A DNA stretch of 64,000 nucleotides from an uncultured Oscillospiraceae bacterium (GTDB lineage Bacteria; Bacillota; Clostridia; Christensenellales; CAG-138): the NCBI GenBank assembly GCA_964437665.1, contig CAYTHS010000002.1, positions 315 through 64,314 of the forward strand. Reading direction: 5' to 3'. Positions within the stretch are counted from its first letter, which is position 1. Each line of letters starts with the position of its first letter. The notes beneath the pieces are model-generated. The model was not told the DNA's origin. It saw nothing but the letters and a program-made list of their open reading frames with translations, and did no database searches. Shown here piece after piece: positions 2,004 through 51,598 of the stretch. The translations under genes were made by a program, and so were the position numbers.

Positions 2004-2208
2004 CGTTTTCGTTTGGCCCGCAAGAGCGCTTTGCAGGGAATCCGCCCTGCACCGCACCCAAGGGACAAGTACACTGGGAATTCCGGATTGTTTTCAAAAA
2101 AAGGCGTGTTTTTTAGTCGTTTTGGCCCTAAACGGTGGTTTGGAACCGGATCGTCCAGCATCGATTCTTTATCGACAGACAAAGGCGGGAAGCAAATTTG
2201 CTTCCCGT

Positions 2209-2401: not shown

Positions 2402-2453
2402 GGCGGGAAGCAAATTTGCTTCCCGTCTTCGTTATCTCACCGCGTGAAATTTG

Positions 2454-3959
2454 TCAGATCGTTTTAAGCTTGCTCGTGTCCAGCTTGTCGAACGCCATGA
2501 GGAACGCATAGAGTTTTTGCGCAATGACATGCACGCCCCCGACGCTGTTGCTCTCGATGTTGAGCGGCATGAGCGGGTCGTGCAGGGACATCCGCAGCAG
2601 GAACCACCCGTCGCCGTCGTCCGCGCCGAACGAAACGCGCAGGCCTTCGTGGTTTTCTTTGGCCACGCCCCAGCCCTGCTCTTTGGCATATTCGCCGAGG
2701 TCGCGCAGCAGGCCGTTGCCGTATGCCTGACAGTCCGCGCAGGAGAGGTTCATGCGCACCTCGGTGCTTTCTGTGGGTTCGGCGAGCGAGTCGATGAGCG
2801 AAAACAGCGTGCGTCCTTCCTTTTTGAGCTGTGCCATTTTGATGAGCAGCTTGGTGATGAGGAACGCTCCGTCGTCGAGAAAATAGTTTTCCTTGAGCGC
2901 GCCGTGGCCGGATGTCTCGATGGCGAGCTGGCAGTCGCGGCCTTCGTTATTGATGCGGATGGCTTCGTCGATGACGTTTTTATAACCGCGCTTAAAGCGA
3001 TGGTGCACGCCGCCTTTTGCGGCGATGAACGCAGCGAGTCCGCTGGACGTGATGGAGTCCGTCACGATGGTCGTGCCAGGGTGCTCTTCAAGAAGCACGG
3101 CGGAGATCAGCGCAATCAGGCGGTTGCGGTTGATTTCGCGGCCGTCCGCGGCGACCGCGCCCGCGCGGTCCACGTCCGTATCGAAAATGACGCCCATATC
3201 GGCGTGATTTTCCAGCACGCAGGCGGTGACCGCTTTCATGGCCTCTTCGTTTTCCGGGTTCGGCGCGTGGTTCGGGAACATGCCGTCCGGATCCAGAAAC
3301 TGACTGCCGCTCGTGTCCGCGCCGAGCGGAACAAGCACTTTGTCCACAAAGAAGCCGCCCGCGCCGTTGCCCGCGTCCACTATGACGTGGAATCCCTTGA
3401 GTGGATGGTCGTAGTCCGGCGCATTCACGCTCTTTCGGATGCGCTCGACCAGACCGGCGGCATACACGGAAAGGAAATCGACCTGGGCGAGGCTGCCGCG
3501 TTCCATCGCCGGAATATATGCGTTTTCCTGCGCGCGTGCCAGAATGGAGGCAATCTCAACTTTTTCCAGTCCGCCGTCGCGCGTGAAAAACTTGATGCCG
3601 TTGCGGTTCCAGGGCAGGTGGCTTGCGGTGAGCATGATCGCTCCGTCGAACGCGTATCCCGGCGTGACGGTACTCATAAACATGCTCGGCGTGCTGGCCA
3701 TTCCGAAATCGGCGAGGTCCGCGCCCATGGATAAAACGCCTTCTGCAGCGGCGGAAAGCAGCCGTTCCCCGGAAAGCCGGGAATCGCGTCCGATCGAAAG
3801 CCGAAGGTCGCTTTTATTGAACTTCTCCTGCAGAAACAGGACGAACGCTTTTGCGATGTTCGTGACGGCCTCGTCCGTCAGATTCACAGGCTGCCCCTCG
3901 ACGCCTTCCATTGCGACGCCGCGGATATCGCTGCCGTTTTGCAGTTTCCGATATTCCAT
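2454..3959 (-). CDS. alpha-D-phosphohexomutase family (phosphoglucomutase/phosphomannomutase)
   Basis: 501 aa. Active-site serine loop TASHLPWNRNGIKF and Mg-binding loop FDTDVDRAG. Confidence 0.85.
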   Translation of the reverse strand: MEYRKLQNGSDIRGVAMEGVEGQPVNLTDEAVTNIAKAFVLFLQEKFNKSDLRLSIGRDSRLSGERLLSAAAEGVLSMGADLADFGMASTPSMFMSTVTPGYAFDGAIMLTASHLPWNRNGIKFFTRDGGLEKVEIASILARAQENAYIPAMERGSLAQVDFLSVYAAGLVERIRKSVNAPDYDHPLKGFHVIVDAGNGAGGFFVDKVLVPLGADTSGSQFLDPDGMFPNHAPNPENEEAMKAVTACVLENHADMGVIFDTDVDRAGAVAADGREINRNRLIALISAVLLEEHPGTTIVTDSITSSGLAAFIAAKGGVHHRFKRGYKNVIDEAIRINNEGRDCQLAIETSGHGALKENYFLDDGAFLITKLLIKMAQLKKEGRTLFSLIDSLAEPTESTEVRMNLSCADCQAYGNGLLRDLGEYAKEQGWGVAKENHEGLRVSFGADDGDGWFLLRMSLHDPLMPLNIESNSVGGVHVIAQKLYAFLMAFDKLDTSKLKTI

Positions 3960-6145: not shown

Positions 6146-6266
6146 GTGTCTATCAACCCGGTCCATCGCCGGACGGACTTGATTTTCAAAAATATTTCCG
6201 TACCCGCTACGCGCGGCGGAGCACTCGAATGCCCGTTTTCCGCACGCGGAAAGGAGCGCATAAACT

Positions 6267-9200
6267 ATGAAGTTTTTAAAATGGAATTTTCTGAAAGTGC
6301 TGGCGGCCTGTGCTGCCGCGCTGCTTCTCATCGGCCCTGCCGCCGCGCTGGCGGAAGGGGACAAGACGGCGGTGACGATCACCGGCGTGAGCGTGGAAAG
6401 CAAAACCTATGATGGCGCGCCCGTTTCGCCAAGCGGCGAGCCCGTTATCAAGGATGCGAGCGAAAACACAGTGACGATTGCTTCCGACGGGCTGGTGTAC
6501 GCCTACGCGAGCACGGACGGCGGGACTTACCTGGACACAACGCCGCCCACGAACGCCGGCGCGTATACGCTTACGATCTCCGTTTCCGGCGGCAACGCGA
6601 CCTATGAAGGGTCGAGCGAGCCGATTCCGTTTACGATCTCCAGGGCGGCGCTGAGCGTCAACCCGGACGGCGGCAAAACGCGCTATGCCGGGCTGAGCGA
6701 TCCCGCGTTTACGTTTTCCAGCGCCGGTCAGATTGCGGAAGAAACGCCCGCGTTCAGCGGCAGCCTGAGCGGCGAAGCGACGGCTTCCTCTGCGGAAGGC
6801 GTATATGACATTACGATCGGCACGCTTGCGCTTTCAGACAGCGGCGCGTTTCTCGCGGACAACTACACGCTTTCGCTTGCGCCCGACGCGGCTTACCGGG
6901 TGGTGAACTATCCGTCCGACGCGGCTGCGACGCTCGCGTCAACGAACCGCGCAACGAATGGAACCTATACCGGCGACGTCACGCTTAATGCACCGGACGG
7001 ATATGAAATCTCGTTCTCGTCCGCGGGCGAATGGGCGGCTTCCGCCACCAAGACGGACTGCGTGACCGGCGACAACGCCATCTATTATTATCTGCGTGTT
7101 TCCGGCGGGAGTTATGTCGGTGCAATCACCGAACGCAAAATGCTTTCGGCGCGATACGACGCGTCGGGCCCTGTCGTTTCGCTGTATTCTCCCACGACGG
7201 ACGCGGCGGTCTCCGGCAATCAGAAGATCATCCTTTCGCTTGACGAATATGCCGCAGCCGGTTCCGGCGCGAGCATAAATGTATCCGCGGGCGGTACGAC
7301 CTATACCGCCGAGGTGACGAACGCATCCGCCCTGGGCGGCGCGTCCGGCGGGCCCTGGTATTTCGTGTTCGATTTAAGCGATTTTTCACCGGCGCTTTCG
7401 CTGACGGCGGGTACGGTATATACGGTTACCGTCCCGGCGGGCACTTTTACCGATGCGACGGGCAACGGCAACGCGGAATTGAGCGCTGCGTTTACCACGT
7501 CCGCTTCCGGTGGGCATGCGGTCGTGTTTACGCAGGCCAACGGCCTTTTGAGCGTGCGGACGGGGACGGACGACGCCGTTGTGAGCGGACAGGCCGTAGC
7601 CGACGGTACGCAGTTGATCTTTGACGCGCCGGCGGAGGGTGGATATTCGCTGAACCGAACTATTTTGGAAGATGGGACGGAAAACGGGAGCGCCGAGTTA
7701 AGCGCCTATACGCTTTCGGGCGATCTGGAGGTGTATTATACCCGCGTGCTGTCGGATTTCAGCGGCACGGCGACAATTTCCGGAACCGTTAAGGCGGGAG
7801 AAACGCTGACGGGCGGGGTTGACGGAGCGAACCAGAGCGATTCGTCCGGGTGGACGTTTACCTGGGTGCGGCGTGACGGCGGCGTTGATACGCCGCTTGC
7901 CTCGGGCGGCAGCGGCACAAGCTATACGCTCACCGCGGCGGACGTTGGCAAGACGATCCGCCTGGCGGTAACGGACTCGGTCTGCGTTAACGGAGTTCTT
8001 TATAAAGAAACGGTGACCGTTGCAAAAGCGGACTACCAGGGCAGCGTGGTGGCGGCGCCGGCGATTGTGTCCCTTGGCGAAACCGACGTTACGCTTGCCT
8101 CTACCGACGGCTATGAGTATTCCCTTGGCGGCACAGCCTGGCAGGACAGTCCGTCGTTTTCCGGACTTGTAAGCGGCCAGAGATACGACTTTTATCAGCG
8201 CGTTAAAGCAACGGACACGGTGAATGCGTCTCCCGCAAGTGAAAAGACGAGTATCGGCACCGTTTCCGCACTGTCGGGCACGGTTTCCATCAGCGGAACG
8301 GCGCAGTCCGGCAGCCTTCTGACCGGAGCGATCGCGGATAGCAACAACACCGGCACGCTCACATATACCTGGAAGCGCGGAACCGCCACCGTCGGCACGG
8401 GCGCGACGTATACGCCCGCCGCCGCGGATATTGGCCAGACCCTCACGCTCGAGGTGACCAGCAGCGTGCAGACGGGGACGCGTTCTGCAACGAGCGCGGC
8501 GGTGCTCAAAGCGGTTTGTTCGCAGCCTGCACCCGCTGCGCCGGCGCTGGCAAGCGCAACCGCGACGAGCATTACGCTTACGGCGACGCCGGGGTATCAG
8601 TACTCGCTCGGCGGCACGGCCTGGCAGGATACGACGACGTTCCATAACCTTTCGATCGGCACGAGCTATACGTTTTATCAGCGCGTGAAGGAGACGGATA
8701 CCGAACTGAGTTCGGCGAGCAGCCCCGGCGCGACGTTTTCCACGCTGCCTGCGCTCAGCGGCGTGATCATGATTTCCGGCGAAGCACGTTACGGCATGAC
8801 GATTGTAGCGAGCCTTACCGATACCAACAACACCGGCACGCTGAGCTATACCTGGAAGCGCGGCACGCTTACGGTCGGCACCGGCGCGGCATATGCCGTC
8901 GGTGCGGTCGATATAGGCAATCAGCTTTCTCTTGAAGTGACGAGTTCCGAGCAGGGCGGCAGCATCACCCGTTCGTTCGGCACGGTGCAAAAAGCGTACT
9001 ATTTCGGAAACACGCCGGGCGCGCCAACGCGCGCCAGCCGCACCACGAGCAAAATTGTTCTCAAGAGCGTCGACGACTGCGAGTATTCCAGAAACGGCAC
9101 GACCTGGCAGGACAGCACGACGTTCTCCGGTTTGAGGTCCGGCACGACCTATACGTTTTACCAGCGCTATAAAGCGACCACCACAATGGAAGCATCCCCG

Positions 9201-9968
9201 GCAAGCGATTCTCTGAGAACGGCAACGCTCTCTTCAAGCAGTTCGGACGACGATTCTTCGACCTCTGCTACGCCGACGCCCGCGTCGGATTCCTCCGGCT
9301 CCGATACGGCGCTCTACAGCTATACGCTCACAAGCGACAACACGCGGATCCTCTACAGCGTCATGAAAAACCTTGCCGCTGGCAACAAAACGAAGGACGT
9401 GACCATCAAGCAAAGCAACGTGGAAATTACGTTCCTCAAGGGGACGATGACCGACAGTTACACCAAGCTTTGGTACGATTTCGGCACGACCATCAATAAT
9501 TCCATCGCTGAACAGACGGCAAAAAGCATTGCCGGGGACGCGTATGTGGCGACTATCCATTTTAATTACGAAGGCGCGCTACCCGGGACGGCGAGCATTC
9601 GATTCTGGCTCGGTGCGGCGAACGCGGGAAAAACGCTGTATTACTATAAGCTTGAAGACGACGAAACGCTCACGTTCATGCAGACCGCTGTGGCCGACAG
9701 CACCGGCTGGGTGACGGTCAAGCAGACAAGCTGTTCGGACTACGTGTTCCTTGACCGGGACATTGCGGCCGCTTCGGCAACCCCCGCGCCGTCCTCGACT
9801 GCAAGCGCCGGCGTTTCCCCGACGCCTACGTCGCTGATCGCGGCTGACGATACGCCGTTTTCCGGTCTCACGGCGGAGGGCTGGTTCATCGCGGTGCTCG
9901 TATTGCTGGCAATTGCGCTGATTGTCGGCGGCATCTGGCTCTATACGAAGAATCGGGACGAATATTAA
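6267..9968 (+). CDS. large cell-surface protein: signal peptide, N-terminal MBG-type domains, three internal repeat modules, Ser/Thr/Asp-rich linker, C-terminal TM anchor
   Basis: 1233 aa. N-terminal hydrophobic signal LLLIGPAAALA. KTYDG...NAGAYTLTIS...FTISRAAL pattern of MBG domains. Three repeats of GGTAWQDS..F.GL..G..Y.FYQR.K.TDT followed by a SG....SG block. C-terminal WFIAVLVLLAIALIVGGIWLY. Confidence 0.85.
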   Translation: MKFLKWNFLKVLAACAAALLLIGPAAALAEGDKTAVTITGVSVESKTYDGAPVSPSGEPVIKDASENTVTIASDGLVYAYASTDGGTYLDTTPPTNAGAYTLTISVSGGNATYEGSSEPIPFTISRAALSVNPDGGKTRYAGLSDPAFTFSSAGQIAEETPAFSGSLSGEATASSAEGVYDITIGTLALSDSGAFLADNYTLSLAPDAAYRVVNYPSDAAATLASTNRATNGTYTGDVTLNAPDGYEISFSSAGEWAASATKTDCVTGDNAIYYYLRVSGGSYVGAITERKMLSARYDASGPVVSLYSPTTDAAVSGNQKIILSLDEYAAAGSGASINVSAGGTTYTAEVTNASALGGASGGPWYFVFDLSDFSPALSLTAGTVYTVTVPAGTFTDATGNGNAELSAAFTTSASGGHAVVFTQANGLLSVRTGTDDAVVSGQAVADGTQLIFDAPAEGGYSLNRTILEDGTENGSAELSAYTLSGDLEVYYTRVLSDFSGTATISGTVKAGETLTGGVDGANQSDSSGWTFTWVRRDGGVDTPLASGGSGTSYTLTAADVGKTIRLAVTDSVCVNGVLYKETVTVAKADYQGSVVAAPAIVSLGETDVTLASTDGYEYSLGGTAWQDSPSFSGLVSGQRYDFYQRVKATDTVNASPASEKTSIGTVSALSGTVSISGTAQSGSLLTGAIADSNNTGTLTYTWKRGTATVGTGATYTPAAADIGQTLTLEVTSSVQTGTRSATSAAVLKAVCSQPAPAAPALASATATSITLTATPGYQYSLGGTAWQDTTTFHNLSIGTSYTFYQRVKETDTELSSASSPGATFSTLPALSGVIMISGEARYGMTIVASLTDTNNTGTLSYTWKRGTLTVGTGAAYAVGAVDIGNQLSLEVTSSEQGGSITRSFGTVQKAYYFGNTPGAPTRASRTTSKIVLKSVDDCEYSRNGTTWQDSTTFSGLRSGTTYTFYQRYKATTTMEASPASDSLRTATLSSSSSDDDSSTSATPTPASDSSGSDTALYSYTLTSDNTRILYSVMKNLAAGNKTKDVTIKQSNVEITFLKGTMTDSYTKLWYDFGTTINNSIAEQTAKSIAGDAYVATIHFNYEGALPGTASIRFWLGAANAGKTLYYYKLEDDETLTFMQTAVADSTGWVTVKQTSCSDYVFLDRDIAAASATPAPSSTASAGVSPTPTSLIAADDTPFSGLTAEGWFIAVLVLLAIALIVGGIWLYTKNRDEY

Positions 9969-13700: not shown

Positions 13701-15923
13701 ATGATATGTAAGGAATGCGGCGCTTTCAACGCTGAAAACCTGACAAACTGCAAAGCCTGCGGAGCGAAGCTCAATGGTGAAGACGTGGGTGCAGCTGCGG
13801 AAACGCCCGTGGAGCATCAGGACGACGGGAAGCCTTCGCGCGAGTTCGTGAAGGCGCCGGCATGGCCGACGCGCGCTTTTTCCGGCGCGCCGGAAAACCA
13901 GCCGATTCCTCCTTCCGCACCCGAAGCGGCCAGTGCGCCGTCCGGTTCGTTCCGTCCTACGATTCCGCCGCGCGCGGCCGCGGCTCTTCCGGTAGGCGAA
14001 CCGTGCGAATCCTGCGGGAAACCTACGGTTGCAGACGCGCAGTTCTGCCCCTATTGCGGGTATAATCTGCATGCTCCGGCAGACGCGCAGCGCGAACAGT
14101 TCAGCGCGGGCGCGGCGCATGCCGCCGCCGCACAGAGCGCGCTGGATGATTTTGACGATGATTATGAAGATGAAGAATTCGACGACGAGGAATTCGGCCT
14201 GAAGAAATCGAAACGGCGCGGATCGGGCAAAATCGCACGGCGCGACGAGGAATTCGACGACGATTATCCCGCGGAATACGACGAGGAATTCGAAGACGAA
14301 GATTATGACGATATGCCCAAAAAACGCAGCAAAGGCACGACGATCCTATTTTGGAGCCTTATTGTTCTGCTGCTTGCGCTGATTGCCGTATTTGGCATGT
14401 ATATCGCTAAAAAGAACTTCGACGGAGATATCGGCAAGATGTTTGCCTCGATCGGAAGCGTATTCAATACGAACGGAAGCCAGGACGTGGATGCATCCGA
14501 CCCGACCACGATAGACGCTTCCGGCCAGAGCAATATGTATACCGCGTCGATCAGTGAATATACGGACCCGTCTACAAACGAAGTATACTTCGATATCGAT
14601 ATATTTGCGCCCACGGGCAGTACGGTACGTATCATTACGGACGCGACCCTGAAGGACAATACCGCGACGGTACCGTCCAACGACCATGTAATCCTCCGCA
14701 TTGCGCGGGACGTGTTCATGCCGAATGCGCCCGTCGAGAGTGAAGTGCTGACGATTACTCCGAACATACAGGTCATTTCGACGGACGGCCAGACAACGCA
14801 GCTTACCGTTCCGGATATAACGGTAACGGTGCCGGTGCTGAGCATGACGGTTACGGAACCCGCAGGGGATACGGTCAGCGCGACGTATGACAGCAGCCCG
14901 ATTGCAATCATTGGACAGGTTAACGATTACGACGGGGAAATCGCCGTGTTTGTTAACGATCAGCAGGTCTATGTGGACAGCACGGGTATGTTTACATCAA
15001 GCTATACGCCTGCGGCGGCGAGCACGACCGCAGCACAGGCGCCCGCGGCCGACGAAACGGCTACGACCGGCGAGACGGCAACGACCGACGAGACGGCAAC
15101 GACCGACGAGACGGCAACGACCGACGAGACGGCGACGACCGACGAGACGGCAACGACCGACGAGACTGCGACGACCGACGAGACTGCTACGACCGACGAG
15201 ACTGCGACGACCGACGAGACTGCGACGACCGGCGAAACGACGACGACCGGCGCGCAGACGATCGTTATCGAAGCGCGGAAGAATAACTGCGTGACTGCGC
15301 GTAAGGTAATCACCGTCGAACCGTATGTGATGCAGAACCTCTCGTTTATGGTTACGAATGAAACGGACACGCTTTCCTCCGACGCGGGAAGCGTTACGGT
15401 GACCGGTACGGCTACGCCGGGCACTAAAATTACGGCGACGTGCCCCTCGACCGACGTAACGTTCGGCGAGGCGACGGTCAGCGATACCGGAACGTTCTCC
15501 ATGGCGGTTTCCATCGCGAAAGTCGGCGCTTACGATATTACGCTGACCGGACAGCTCGAAGGCTACTATGACGGAACCACGATTGCGACCGTGGAACGCC
15601 CGCCGTCGGACTCCAGCAGCGTATTTAAGAAGGCGGCCGCCGACCTGACCAAGAGTTATGAAAAGATCGTCGACGGCAGCGTTACAGACGGCGACTTCGT
15701 TTGCACCGGCAGGATTACGGAAATCATTGCTTCCGAGCCGTACACGATCTTCCGCGTGGAGCTCAGCGACGGCAAAGAGGTCATCTGCGTCAACCGCAGC
15801 ACCAAATCGACGATCAACTCGTCCGACCTCAAGGAAAAGAAACAGCTTGCCGGTACGCTCAAGGGGCTGTATACCGACGGAACGACGCCTTACCTCTGGA
15901 CTTGGTTTATCTGGAATAAATAA
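13701..15923 (+). CDS. zinc-ribbon membrane protein with acidic cytoplasmic linker, one TM helix and a large extracytoplasmic domain
   Basis: 740 aa. Two CxxC...CxxC zinc ribbons (CKECG..CKACG; CESCG..CPYCG). D/E-rich tract. TM helix ILFWSLIVLLLALIAVFGMYI. DETATT repeat tract. RBS GGAGG. Confidence 0.8.
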   Translation: MICKECGAFNAENLTNCKACGAKLNGEDVGAAAETPVEHQDDGKPSREFVKAPAWPTRAFSGAPENQPIPPSAPEAASAPSGSFRPTIPPRAAAALPVGEPCESCGKPTVADAQFCPYCGYNLHAPADAQREQFSAGAAHAAAAQSALDDFDDDYEDEEFDDEEFGLKKSKRRGSGKIARRDEEFDDDYPAEYDEEFEDEDYDDMPKKRSKGTTILFWSLIVLLLALIAVFGMYIAKKNFDGDIGKMFASIGSVFNTNGSQDVDASDPTTIDASGQSNMYTASISEYTDPSTNEVYFDIDIFAPTGSTVRIITDATLKDNTATVPSNDHVILRIARDVFMPNAPVESEVLTITPNIQVISTDGQTTQLTVPDITVTVPVLSMTVTEPAGDTVSATYDSSPIAIIGQVNDYDGEIAVFVNDQQVYVDSTGMFTSSYTPAAASTTAAQAPAADETATTGETATTDETATTDETATTDETATTDETATTDETATTDETATTDETATTDETATTGETTTTGAQTIVIEARKNNCVTARKVITVEPYVMQNLSFMVTNETDTLSSDAGSVTVTGTATPGTKITATCPSTDVTFGEATVSDTGTFSMAVSIAKVGAYDITLTGQLEGYYDGTTIATVERPPSDSSSVFKKAAADLTKSYEKIVDGSVTDGDFVCTGRITEIIASEPYTIFRVELSDGKEVICVNRSTKSTINSSDLKEKKQLAGTLKGLYTDGTTPYLWTWFIWNK
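15051..15248 (+). repeat. in-frame tandem repeat, 11 x 18 bp (GACGAGACGGCAACGACC, encoding DETATT)
   Basis: Read directly. Units differ only at a few synonymous or near-synonymous positions. Confidence 0.95.
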
Positions 15924-16255: not shown

Positions 16256-16415
16256 TTGGCTTTGACGTAATAACCGTTTTTTGACTCTTGCCCTTCGGAC
16301 TCCCAGGCGGCAACGCGCACAAAAAACCTCCCGAAACGGGCGATGGTGCTGTGCCGGATAAACGGATTAAGGGCTGCGGCTCTTAACAACCCCGAAGATT
16401 TATTTAGCAGGCTGA
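16256..16415 (+). repeat. copy B of the structured intergenic repeat (left end diverged or truncated)
   Basis: Aligns with 2230-2401 over TTGACG.AATAACCG...CCTTCGGACTCCC.GGCGGCAA...GGGCGATGG...GCCGGATAAACGGATTAAGGGCTGCGGCTCTTAAC...CAGGCTGA. Confidence 0.8.
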
Positions 16416-16440
16416 GCGGCTCCGTCGGGGCCGCTTTTTC
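16416..16440 (+). terminator. rho-independent terminator abutting repeat copy B
   Basis: GCGGCTCC-GTC-GGGGCCGC plus TTTTT. Confidence 0.75.
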
Positions 16441-49021: not shown

Positions 49022-50764
49022 ATGGATAAAGTAACTGTTAAGATCAACGGGATCGAAGTAAAGGTTCCCGCCAACGCTACAATATTGGAAGCAGCGCGCG
49101 AAGCGGGCGTCCGCATCCCGACGCTGTGCTACCTCAAGGACATCAACGAAATTGCGGCGTGCCGTATCTGCCTCGTCCAGGCGACGGGCGTACGCGGCCA
49201 TGCGGCGGCGTGCGTGACCAAGGTCGCTGACGGAATGGAAGTCGTCACCAACACGCCCGAACTTCGCAATGCGCGTAAAACCACGCTCGAACTCATCCTC
49301 AGCAATCACCGTATGGACTGCCTCTCCTGCTCGCGCAACGGCAACTGTGAACTGCAGGCGCTTGCCAAGGAATATGACGTAGACCAGTATAAATTCTGCG
49401 GCAGCGAGGACCTGAAACCCCAGTATGAGCGCAGCGCGCCGCATCTGGTGCGCGACAACAGCAAGTGTATCTTGTGCCGCCGCTGCGTTGCGGTCTGCAA
49501 GCATAACCAGCATGTTGCGGTTATCGGCACCAACGAGCGCGGGTTTGACACGCATGTCGGCTGTGCGTTTGACCTGCCGCTGGCGGAGACCACCTGCGTC
49601 AATTGCGGTCAGTGCATCACCGTTTGCCCGACCGGTGCGCTCATGGAACGCGACGACACCGCCGCCGTCTGGGAAGCGCTGGCGGACCCCAAGAAGCATG
49701 TGGTCGTAGCGCCCGCGCCGTCCGTGCGTGCGCAGCTCGGAGAGTGCTTCGATATGCCGATCGGCACGAACGTTCAGGGCAAAATGGTCGCGGCGCTGTG
49801 TCGTCTCGGGTTCGACAAGGTATTCGACGTAGACTTTGCCGCCGACGTGACGATCATGGAGGAAGGCACCGAGCTGCTTGAACGTCTGAACAACGGCGGG
49901 AAACTGCCGCTGATCACCTCCTGCTCGCCCGGGTGGATCAAATTCTGCGAGCATTACTATCCGGACATGATCGAGAACCTCTCGAGCTGCAAAAGCCCGC
50001 AGCAGATGTTCGGCGCGCTGACCAAGACCTATTATGCCGAGAAGGAAGGGCTCGATCCGAAGGATATCTTCGTCGTGTCCATCATGCCCTGCACGGCTAA
50101 GAAATTCGAGTGCACGCGCGACGACGAAAACGCGGCGGGTGTGCCCGATGTGGATATTTCGCTCACTACGCGCGAGCTTGGCAGCATGATCAAGCGCGCG
50201 GGCATCATGTTTACCGATCTCAAGGACGAAGAGTTCGACCCCATCATGGGCGTTGCATCCGGCGCGGGCCACATCTTTGGCGCGACGGGCGGCGTGATGG
50301 AAGCGGCGCTGCGTACCGTTGCGGAAATCGTGACCGGAAAGCCGCTCGACAACGTGGAGTTCAAGGACGTCCGCGGCGTTGAAAGCTGCAAGGAGGCAGA
50401 GTATGACCTTGCGGGCACCAAGGTGCGCGTTGCGGTCACGAGCGGCCTCGAAAACGCGCATAAACTGCTGGATATGGTGCGTTCCGGTGAAGCGGAGTAT
50501 CACTTCATCGAAGTCATGGCCTGCCCCGGCGGCTGCGTCAACGGCGGCGGCCAGCCGCATCAGCCCGGCTACGTGCGTAACTTCACAGATCTGCGCGCCG
50601 AGCGCGCCAAAGCGCTTTACAGCGAGGATAAGAACATGGCGCTGCGCAAGAGCCACGAGAATCCCTTTGTCAAGGAGCTTTACGACAGCTATCTGGAAAA
50701 GCCCGGCTCGCACAAGGCGCATGAGATCCTGCACACGACCTACGTTAAACGCAAGGTGTATTGA
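49022..50764 (+). CDS. hydA: [FeFe] hydrogenase catalytic subunit (multi-cluster group-A type)
   Basis: 580 aa. N-terminal 2Fe-2S and 4Fe-4S domains. H-cluster motifs ITSCSPGW, IMPCTAKKFE and EVMACPGGCVNGGGQP. Confidence 0.9.
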   Translation: MDKVTVKINGIEVKVPANATILEAAREAGVRIPTLCYLKDINEIAACRICLVQATGVRGHAAACVTKVADGMEVVTNTPELRNARKTTLELILSNHRMDCLSCSRNGNCELQALAKEYDVDQYKFCGSEDLKPQYERSAPHLVRDNSKCILCRRCVAVCKHNQHVAVIGTNERGFDTHVGCAFDLPLAETTCVNCGQCITVCPTGALMERDDTAAVWEALADPKKHVVVAPAPSVRAQLGECFDMPIGTNVQGKMVAALCRLGFDKVFDVDFAADVTIMEEGTELLERLNNGGKLPLITSCSPGWIKFCEHYYPDMIENLSSCKSPQQMFGALTKTYYAEKEGLDPKDIFVVSIMPCTAKKFECTRDDENAAGVPDVDISLTTRELGSMIKRAGIMFTDLKDEEFDPIMGVASGAGHIFGATGGVMEAALRTVAEIVTGKPLDNVEFKDVRGVESCKEAEYDLAGTKVRVAVTSGLENAHKLLDMVRSGEAEYHFIEVMACPGGCVNGGGQPHQPGYVRNFTDLRAERAKALYSEDKNMALRKSHENPFVKELYDSYLEKPGSHKAHEILHTTYVKRKVY

Positions 50765-50809
50765 TCAAAGCAAACCGGCAAGCGAAGTCCCCGCAGTACT
50801 GCGGGGACT

Positions 50810-50986
50810 TCAGTTTGCCAAAAAGCCTTCGGAATTGTTAAGAGCCGCAGCCCGTAATCCGTTTTTCCGGCACAACACCATCGCCCTTTTCAGGTGGGTT
50901 GTTTGTGCGCTTTGGCGCCCGGGAACGCGAAGGACGAGAGGCAAAGAGCGGTTATACCATCAAATAATCGGTTTTTTGACGGGCAC
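50810..50986 (-). repeat. copy C of the structured intergenic repeat (inverted orientation), flanked by a 24-bp direct repeat (50786-50809 and 50987-51010, 22/24 identical)
   Basis: The reverse complement aligns with 2209-2401, including both terminal inverted repeats. Flanks are AGTCCCCGCAGTACTGCGGGGACT and AGTCCCCGCAGTATTGCGGGGGCT. Confidence 0.85.
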
Positions 50987-51016
50987 AGTCCCCGCAGTAT
51001 TGCGGGGGCTTTTCTG
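50987..51016 (+). terminator. rho-independent terminator (distal copy of the duplicated hydA terminator)
   Basis: AGTCCCCGCA-GTAT-TGCGGGGGCT plus TTTCTG. Confidence 0.75.
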
Positions 51017-51325
51017 TGGAATCCTGCCGAGAAAAATCCTGCAGGACTGCGTGGAGTGCCAAATAGTGGAAGGAGAACAAAGACATACGCACGAGAGAGC
51101 GCCAAAACAGGAAACGTGTTTTGACGGGAACGGCTTTGACAAATGCAGGCTTCTTTTAGGTGCAATGCTTGCATTCTCGTGAAAAATCAATCTCCGCAGG
51201 TTTTTACGTACCGGCCGGAAAACACAATATGCGTTGACTGCGGCGCGCAGCGCTTGTTCGCGTTTCATTTACTTCTGTGGTATAATCAAGCGCAAGTATG
51301 ATATAAACGGGAGAGGAAATCAAAT

Positions 51326-51598
51326 ATGACCGGAGCAGAACGTGCGGTATTCCGAAAGGCCGCCAATACGCTGAAGCCGATCTTTCAGGTCGGCAAAGAA
51401 GATATCGGTGAAAACCTGGTGCAGAGCGTAGACGCGGCGCTGGCAAAACGCGAGCTTATCAAGCTGGCGGTTCTCGAAACCAGCACGCTCACGGCAAAGC
51501 AGGCGGCGGAACTGCTTGCCGAACGCACAGGCGCAGACGTGATACAATGCATCGGCAGGAAGTTTGTGCTGTACCGAGAGAAGCCGGAGGAAGAGTAA
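51326..51598 (+). CDS. yhbY: YhbY-family (CRM-domain) RNA-binding protein
   Basis: 90 aa. ...LKPIFQVGKEDI...LAKRELIKL... typical. Extended -10 TGGTATAAT about 40 nt upstream. Confidence 0.85.
   Translation: MTGAERAVFRKAANTLKPIFQVGKEDIGENLVQSVDAALAKRELIKLAVLETSTLTAKQAAELLAERTGADVIQCIGRKFVLYREKPEEE

Follow-up and report, generated by a model that had tools for sequence, protein, structure and literature searches.

A small repeated element separates two copies of one terminator hairpin downstream of a hydrogenase gene in a 64,000-nt stretch of DNA from an uncultured Oscillospiraceae bacterium (contig CAYTHS010000002.1, positions 315 to 64,314 of the forward strand; hereafter, the window). How did the element come to stand between two copies of the same hairpin, and what kind of enzyme could have placed it there? 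An initial annotation, made from the sequence alone, had read this arrangement as the outcome of hairpin- or cruciform-directed insertion. Here, we examine that reading against the other copies in the window, against related genomes and metagenome contigs, and against annotated insertion sequences.

The element at the hydA terminator

Homologues of the hydrogenase have the Pfam domains Fe_hyd_lg_C and Fe_hyd_SSU and are annotated as NADH-dependent [FeFe] hydrogenase. The repeated element, which we assign to family 1, is referred to at this site as copy C, and its terminal inverted repeats are abbreviated TIRs. In window coordinates, the features of the site are:

49022..50764, + strand: hydA/hndD-type [FeFe] hydrogenase gene, from its ORF and translation; its intrinsic terminator is the insertion target
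50786..50810, no strand: duplicated target hairpin, upstream copy; a perfect 12+12 palindrome plus T, with element sequence now in the place of the T-tract
50811..50986, - strand: element copy C, a short family-1 variant of 176 nt with one internal helix missing (nhmmer E=1.7e-40, and alignments)
50811..50825, - strand: right TIR of copy C, CTTTTTGGCAAACTG in element orientation
50957..50986, - strand: left terminus of copy C, the TIR GTGCCCGTCAAAAAA and an adjacent inverted copy, which form a degenerate terminal hairpin
50987..51011, no strand: duplicated hairpin, downstream copy; two mismatches, T-tract kept (51010-51013), a functional-looking terminator
51326..51598, + strand: yhbY (CRS1_YhbY) gene, downstream of the target site; Pfam PF01985 on orthologues

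The flanking hairpins are as they had first been described: positions 50786-50809 read AGTCCCCGCAGTACTGCGGGGACT, a 12+12 palindrome without mismatch, and positions 50987-51010 read AGTCCCCGCAGTATTGCGGGGGCT, which has two mismatches relative to the upstream palindrome and is followed by TTTTCT. The bounds initially given for the element (50810-50986, with a 24-bp duplication) are as defensible as those that follow from the family consensus (50811-50986, with a duplication of 25 bp at 50786-50810 and 50987-51011, identical at 23/25 positions), the ambiguity being 1 nt. The nhmmer match extends over 50811-50984 (model positions 3-195), and no ORF is attributable to copy C. The architecture of its left terminus is also present in bona fide ends of insertion sequences that belong to the IS1182 family.

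As a control for the similarity of flanks, we aligned left and right flanks that came from different copies (570 pairs) and took the 99th percentile score, 22, as the cut-off. The flank-duplication alignment scores 40 at copy C and 50 at another copy in the window, copy A. The duplication at copy C is far beyond chance.

The window contains three copies of the repeat (A, B, and C), the first two with the following features:

2184..2208, no strand: duplication at copy A, left hairpin, GGCGGGAAGCAAATTTGCTTCCCGT; a single hairpin in the empty sites L197 and L196
2209..2402, + strand: element copy A, full-length family 1, 194 nt (nhmmer E=2.9e-65), with the ends GAGACCGTCAAAAAA-CTTG-TTTATTGACGG ... 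TTTTTTGACAGGCTG
2403..2426, no strand: duplication at copy A, right hairpin, the second copy of GGCGGGAAGCAAATTTGCTTCCCGT
16261..16414, + strand: element copy B, 5'-truncated (model positions 23-195), without the left TIR and without a left hairpin copy
16416..16439, + strand: one terminator hairpin with its T-tract, on the right-hand side of copy B

Copy B is presumably immobile. The reverse complement of copy C aligns end to end with copy A, as initially reported, except for an internal deletion of ~19 nt in copy C, and the palindromes that flank copies A and C are indeed unrelated to one another. Other repeats in the window lie within ORFs. An array of ~16 tandem units of 18 bp (e.g. ACGACCGACGAGACGGCA) at 15001-15288, within a long ORF (~13701-15923), would encode a hexapeptide repeat, and three diverged 483-bp direct repeats at 8089-9184 (64-73 per cent identical), within a 1234-codon ORF (6264-9968), are probably repeated protein domains.

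At hydA, the upstream hairpin copy now precedes TCAGTTTGCC and no longer a T-tract, and TTTT is retained by the downstream copy. Judged from these sequences, termination probably shifts to the second hairpin. Because the upstream copy has lost its T-tract, read-through of hydA into the antisense of the element is plausible, and if termination does shift, the hydA transcript would be longer by ~200 nt, with the element antisense included. At positions 51012-51290, from the downstream hairpin to the conserved promoter of yhbY (TATAATCAAGCGCA), the window is also ~230 nt longer than two relatives (L051 and L052).

Element families and their target sites

The family-1 consensus is 5'-GAGaCCGTCAAAAAA-cttg-TTTTTTGACGG ... 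TTTTTTGACAGGCTG-3', and its members are dispersed, high-copy, non-coding sequences of ~175-197 bp. The TIRs, which are conserved across 40 aligned copies, are 15 bp long and imperfect (GAGACCGTCAAAAAA versus the reverse complement of the right end CAGCCTGTCAAAAAA, 12/15). At the left end (CCGTCAAAAAA-N4-TTTTTTGACGG), the TIR is followed by 4 nt and its own inverted copy, so that it makes a terminal hairpin; the right end has no such hairpin. Metagenome contigs that match copy A split into unrelated sequence precisely at 2208/2209 and 2402/2403, and the termini are therefore fixed independently of any alignment. Contig ends that overlap copy A revealed sub-family variants only, and no insertion-sequence interior.

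In an exact-pattern scan with one genome per species, we found 50 loci, about 35 of them in a single MAG (Eubacteriales bacterium, DAOTGE01) and the remainder in Christensenella sp. CA_33, two Christensenellaceae chromosomes, and Oscillospiraceae MAGs. Metagenome contigs scanned for the left-end palindrome gave at least 120 loci, from anaerobic-digester, sludge, and wastewater samples, and in the sludge and wastewater contigs on copy A the depth of the element is 100-200x that of its flanks. The viral contigs scanned contributed one further copy. The element has TIRs, a duplication that was checked against an empty site (see below), and many small, non-coding, dispersed copies; its best reading is a non-autonomous DNA transposon (MITE) of Christensenellales- and Oscillospiraceae-like anaerobes of digesters and wastewater. 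At two loci (L038:594-619 and L041:~3387-3431), solo left-end palindromes, CCGTCAAAAAC-caag-TTTTTCGACGG, come directly after a full copy and its right-hand duplication. Each is either a minimal element or what is left of a second insertion.

The same termini delimit a second family, found at the metagenome loci L079 (2718-3004), L076, L087, L105, L112, L121, L124, L154, and L163. Its members are ~200 nt long, with a variant of ~340 nt that has an extra internal segment, and have in common with family 1 the left 30 nt and the right-hand ...TTTGACAGGCTGA, the interiors being unrelated. Family 2 is also bracketed by whole-hairpin duplications, among them a perfect 42-bp copy at L079. Since the two families are alike only in their termini, the hairpin duplication belongs to the termini, and hence to the protein that binds them, rather than to the interior.

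Comparison with unoccupied sites, which the initial annotation had proposed as a check, shows one hairpin and no element in each case. The hydA-yhbY spacer of three relatives (L051, L052, and L054, with HydA 93, 92, and 90 per cent identical) has one orthologous hairpin terminator (AAGTCCCCGCGcttacCGCGtGGGGACTTTTCT in L054) and is 150-210 nt long, compared with 561 nt in the window. For copy A, the empty site is on a metagenome contig with HutI 95 per cent identical (...ACAAAAAGGCGGGAAGCAAATTTGCTTCCCGCCTTCGTT...), where both flanks of the single hairpin are collinear with the window, and a relative at 80 per cent identity has an orthologous single hairpin at this position. Therefore, both insertions are accompanied by real target-site duplications of a complete terminator hairpin. 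Among metagenome strain variants of the window, no element-free hydA site was found; variants that are ~2 per cent diverged all carry copy C.

The orthologous hydA-yhbY terminator of the MAG DAOTGE01 (L018:1-245, DAOTGE010000036.1) also holds the element, in the opposite orientation, on a contig that begins within the element and so lacks the left flank. In this other species the terminator was hit independently, and such reuse of one terminator supports the hairpin-directed reading of the initial annotation. An insert downstream of hydA in L056, with a seemingly similar TIR, was rejected as ordinary hairpins and the terminator of a convergent gene. By crude ORF calls for 49 copies, 22 are located between convergent genes, 8 in head-tail and 7 in tail-head arrangements. 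The position of copies at gene 3' ends, with no orientation preference relative to transcription, speaks for a DNA target that is symmetric, and against a process at the RNA level or one coupled to transcription.

We then took a census of the duplications in 115 non-redundant full-length copies with both flanks, from genomes and metagenomes. A direct duplication that abuts both termini scores above the mismatched-flank cut-off in 85 of them (74 per cent). The sequence of these duplications differs from site to site, 81 of the 85 fold with a dG at or below -8 kcal/mol, and the median proportion of paired bases is 77 per cent. They are symmetric about the hairpin dyad, with fixed offsets from the termini. 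In the typical case, a duplication takes in the G+C stem and its loop together with one to three of the A.T pairs formed by the A-tract and T-tract. Their length, 14-40 bp with a median of 25, tracks the hairpin and is therefore not fixed at ~24-25 bp. The initial annotation had asked whether duplications are always palindromic and always about 24-25 bp long: they are nearly always hairpins, each specific to its site, but they vary in length, and 30 of the 115 copies have no clear duplication, some of these lying directly 3' of a stop codon with the right-hand hairpin alone. All three copies in the Oscillospiraceae MAG CAYUUB01 (L006, L032, and L047) begin a few bases past the stop codon and have the right-hand terminator alone, an arrangement unlike that of the hairpin-flanked copies.

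Palindromes tend to flip their loops via template switching. The loop is reverse-complemented between the two halves of the duplication in L002, L031:163-359, L037, L045, and L154, and the two stems of L011 differ through compensatory changes, which is suggestive of post-insertion template switching or gene conversion in the palindromes. The argument from hairpin duplication is unaffected by these inversions.

The interior of family 1 is itself structured. It has five helices, in which 89 per cent of cells pair (40 copies), with 69 double-change cells, compared with 23 in shuffles and 13-22 with the partners slid. We regard this conserved structure as real; it could have a role in transposition or reflect selection on read-through transcripts. 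The helices have 115 G.T pairs and 81 A.C pairs, which is no clear excess, and therefore no one strand is clearly favoured. We found no match to Rfam 15 in the window at the gathering threshold, and only chance-level hits for copies C, A, and that of L014 at E up to 10.

An orthologous copy is located right after the sigA stop codon of the dnaG-sigA operon in two species (L014:6205-6400 and L034:5641-5837). It is ~88 per cent identical between them, which is the level of the adjacent coding sequence, and the spacer beyond is unalignable; its right TIR is degenerate and the left hairpin copy is absent. This copy may be an exapted 3'-UTR module. That it is an ancient conserved RNA was considered and rejected: four other sigA loci, with spacers of 61-122 nt, are without the element, and the sigA copy is therefore a lineage-specific insertion.

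Mechanism of insertion and alternative readings

IS1272 and TnSha1, both of the IS1182 family, insert into terminator hairpins (PMC4923244). They do so without sequence specificity, in both orientations, and into the same hairpin repeatedly, and the stem-loop is deleted or replaced without duplication (PMC4923244, PMC5678879). Wan et al. (2017) proposed for this family a cruciform-target model, of which pathway b, a whole stem-loop duplication, was hypothetical only and came without examples. The hairpin- or cruciform-directed insertion of the initial annotation is the best fit to the present data and matches that hypothetical pathway (PMC5678879).

Our preferred reading, to which we assign a probability of roughly 0.7, is that the element is a MITE mobilised by a probably IS1182-like transposase, which attacks an extruded cruciform at its 5' feet, with repair that duplicates the entire stem-loop. 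A transposase supplied in trans would capture a target that has extruded a cruciform or single-strand hairpins, and would attack at the 5' feet of the stem, which are 14-42 bp apart in linear DNA and adjacent at a four-way junction. Gap repair would then copy the whole stem-loop onto both sides of the element, so that the target-site duplication would be the hairpin, of any length or sequence; the upstream hairpin copy would lose its T-tract, and the downstream copy would keep it. Hairpins on single-stranded DNA at replication forks are a possible alternative target state. The element would accumulate at gene 3' ends because intrinsic terminators are the commonest stable hairpins of a genome. 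The enzyme appears to read the shape of DNA and not its sequence, since about a hundred sister copies duplicate other, different hairpins in the same way.

For comparison of the termini, we assembled a reference set of IS1272 and 12 other annotated IS1182-family copies from plasmids (L059-L071). The reference termini have in common (A/G)G-N-C(T/C)G(T/G)...CA(A/T)AA, and the end motif [AG]GNC[TC]G[TGA]N1-4A[AT]AA, built solely from 20 ends of these 13 bona fide copies, fits the element at both termini. Because this motif is short and rich in A, the match is suggestive of a link with the IS1182 family rather than conclusive; its background is 1.7e-4 per window position. The reference ends often fold as terminal hairpins, formed by the inverted repeat and an adjacent inverted copy, like the left end of the element (ISClbu1, pTW9, and a Paenibacillus copy). 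None of the 13 copies has a whole-hairpin direct duplication, and IS1272 deletes or replaces its hairpin; the outcome at the elements described here therefore differs from that of every characterised member. The direct repeats of the IS1182 family in ISfinder range from 0 to 60 bp, and some members may already be known to duplicate in this way. Judged by their ends, the elements resemble IS1182-type substrates for which insertion follows the alternative branch of the cruciform model. In several of the reference copies, short inverted A-runs and T-runs or stem remnants abut the inverted repeats (for example, AAGAA|GAGGCTGGG...CCCAGCCTC|TTCTT in L065), as expected from an insertion within the stem of a terminator in which the loop is lost.

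No transposase gene, whether of the IS1182 family or of another kind, was found in the window, the 58 genome loci, and the 120 metagenome loci listed (~1.2 Mb; MAGs often lose insertion-sequence contigs), and a duplication-anchored scan of the same sequences found no element longer than ~350 bp with these termini. A tblastn search with 11 IS1182-family transposases (IS1272 and 10 others) gave no match in the window or the loci, where absence from the samples is not equivalent to absence from the genomes. No autonomous partner was found by a TIR scan of the window and loci, by a multi-copy ORF search, or in viral contigs. Solo left ends at L029, L155, and L190 were rejected as candidates for an autonomous element, as they adjoin ordinary genes. 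We also considered whether the right end retains coding sequence for a transposase C-terminus, and dropped the idea: the frame is interrupted by indels between sub-families, and the spacing from the end is unsuitable. That the target is a cruciform, that the chemistry is of DDE type, and that the enzyme belongs to the IS1182 family are inferences; an enzyme of this family and of DDE type, acting in trans, is most likely.

A different account, which we hold to be unlikely, is an uncharacterised mode of transposition in which the enzyme recognises the four-way junction or hairpin as such and turns single terminators into terminator-element-terminator modules. In that case, the covarying interior would be a functional structure, serving mobility or exapted as a 3'-UTR, and the enzyme may not be a conventional IS1182 transposase. 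Neither the compensatory changes in the interior nor the conservation of the sigA copy is predicted by a passive MITE interior, and both count against the preferred reading.

It is quite improbable that a Cas1-like (casposase-type) or other non-DDE integrase attacks both borders of the palindromic target, as in CRISPR repeat duplication. Duplications of 14-42 bp over a palindrome do resemble CRISPR-repeat and casposon target-site duplications, but the latter have a fixed length, set by a ruler mechanism, and sequence-specific targets, whereas the duplication length here varies with each hairpin and the target sites are unrelated in sequence. The termini, moreover, match the IS1182-family end motif and end architecture.

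The covariation of the internal helices raises the question of whether a structured non-coding RNA (a 3'-UTR element or small RNA) could have spread via reverse transcription primed at nicked terminators, with variable duplications of the LINE/SINE kind. We judge this to be very unlikely. The persistence of the sigA copy in two species at the level of coding sequence, next to a spacer that is unalignable, would suit such an RNA, but four other sigA loci are without the element, no Rfam family matches it, and the counts of G.T and A.C pairs single out no strand. Several copies do lie directly 3' of stop codons with a single terminator; across the copies, however, there is no orientation bias relative to transcription, the TIRs are defined, and the duplications stop precisely where the hairpin feet are, and not at nicks of variable position. 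The existence of two families with only their termini in common also speaks against an RNA intermediate.

Transposition of the Y1 type requires no TIRs, leaves the target unduplicated, and is strand-specific, 3' of a short motif. TIRs and target duplications are both present and precise here, and both orientations occur at the same site. We therefore consider a hairpin-dependent, palindrome-associated single-strand element of the HUH/Y1 type (IS200/IS605- or RAYT-like) to be highly improbable, even though the element is rich in hairpins conserved by covariation, its targets are hairpins that readily form on single-stranded DNA, and its TIR includes the CGTC tag of one REP super-family (PMC3733652). 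Finally, the notion that generic terminator duplication or replication slippage makes the hairpin pairs, with the element as a passenger, can point to the palindrome-specific replication errors that the loop inversions (L002, L031, L037, L045, and L154) show at these sites, but it is essentially refuted by the empty sites, which have one hairpin and no element, while the duplication always abuts the same two element termini and the mismatched-flank control ties it to each individual insertion.

Comparison with known systems

Under the preferred reading, insertion by a probably IS1182-like transposase at extruded hairpins, the target-site duplication, which is normally a fixed signature of the transposase, has a length set by the shape of the target. 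Such a structure-directed mechanism has so far been proposed from a handful of IS1272 insertions, in which the hairpin is destroyed rather than kept, and the family provides a large natural data set for it, of about a hundred independent events with clean junctions. The model predicts attack at the 5' feet of the cruciform and a dependence on supercoiling, and the data define the ends of the substrate. The insertions also rewire gene 3' ends: terminators are doubled, the upstream one is stripped of its T-tract, and a structured segment of ~190 nt is added to read-through transcripts. In some uncultured anaerobes, the element is very abundant and breaks assemblies.

We found no description in the literature of whole-hairpin duplication by a MITE or an insertion sequence. 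The systematic copying of entire hairpins, whatever their length, appears to be undescribed, as do the two MITE families that carry it out and the abundance of these families in uncultured Clostridia.

The element resembles bacterial MITEs such as Correia/NEMIS, ERIC, RUP, and MITEAba12 in being small, non-coding, high-copy, and intergenic, with TIRs, target-site duplications, and a structured interior. Known bacterial MITEs, however, make short duplications of fixed length (2-9 bp), whereas the duplication described here is 14-42 bp long, variable, and a complete hairpin. Small palindromes or REP hairpins are the preferred targets of the insertion sequences IS231A (IS4 family) and IS1397/ISKpn1 (IS3 family), which the element resembles in its preference for palindromic targets; their duplications are fixed and set by the enzyme (10-12 bp or 3-4 bp), and those of the element are set by the hairpin. 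CRISPR spacer integration and casposon insertion are alike in that a whole target unit, partly palindromic, is duplicated after staggered attack at its two borders, but those systems are sequence-specific and of fixed length, and the termini and end architecture of the element suggest an insertion-sequence family of DDE type.

Of the known systems, structure-dependent transposition in the IS1182 family comes closest. Like IS1272, TnSha1, and the family at large, the element targets hairpins and terminators without primary-sequence specificity, in both orientations, and with reuse of the same hairpin; its termini fit the family end motif, and its left TIR and inverted copy make a terminal hairpin. 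Unlike the insertion sequences of the IS1182 family, it has no transposase gene, and none of the IS1182 type was found nearby. Where IS1272 replaces the hairpin and leaves no duplication, duplication of the whole hairpin is the rule for the element.
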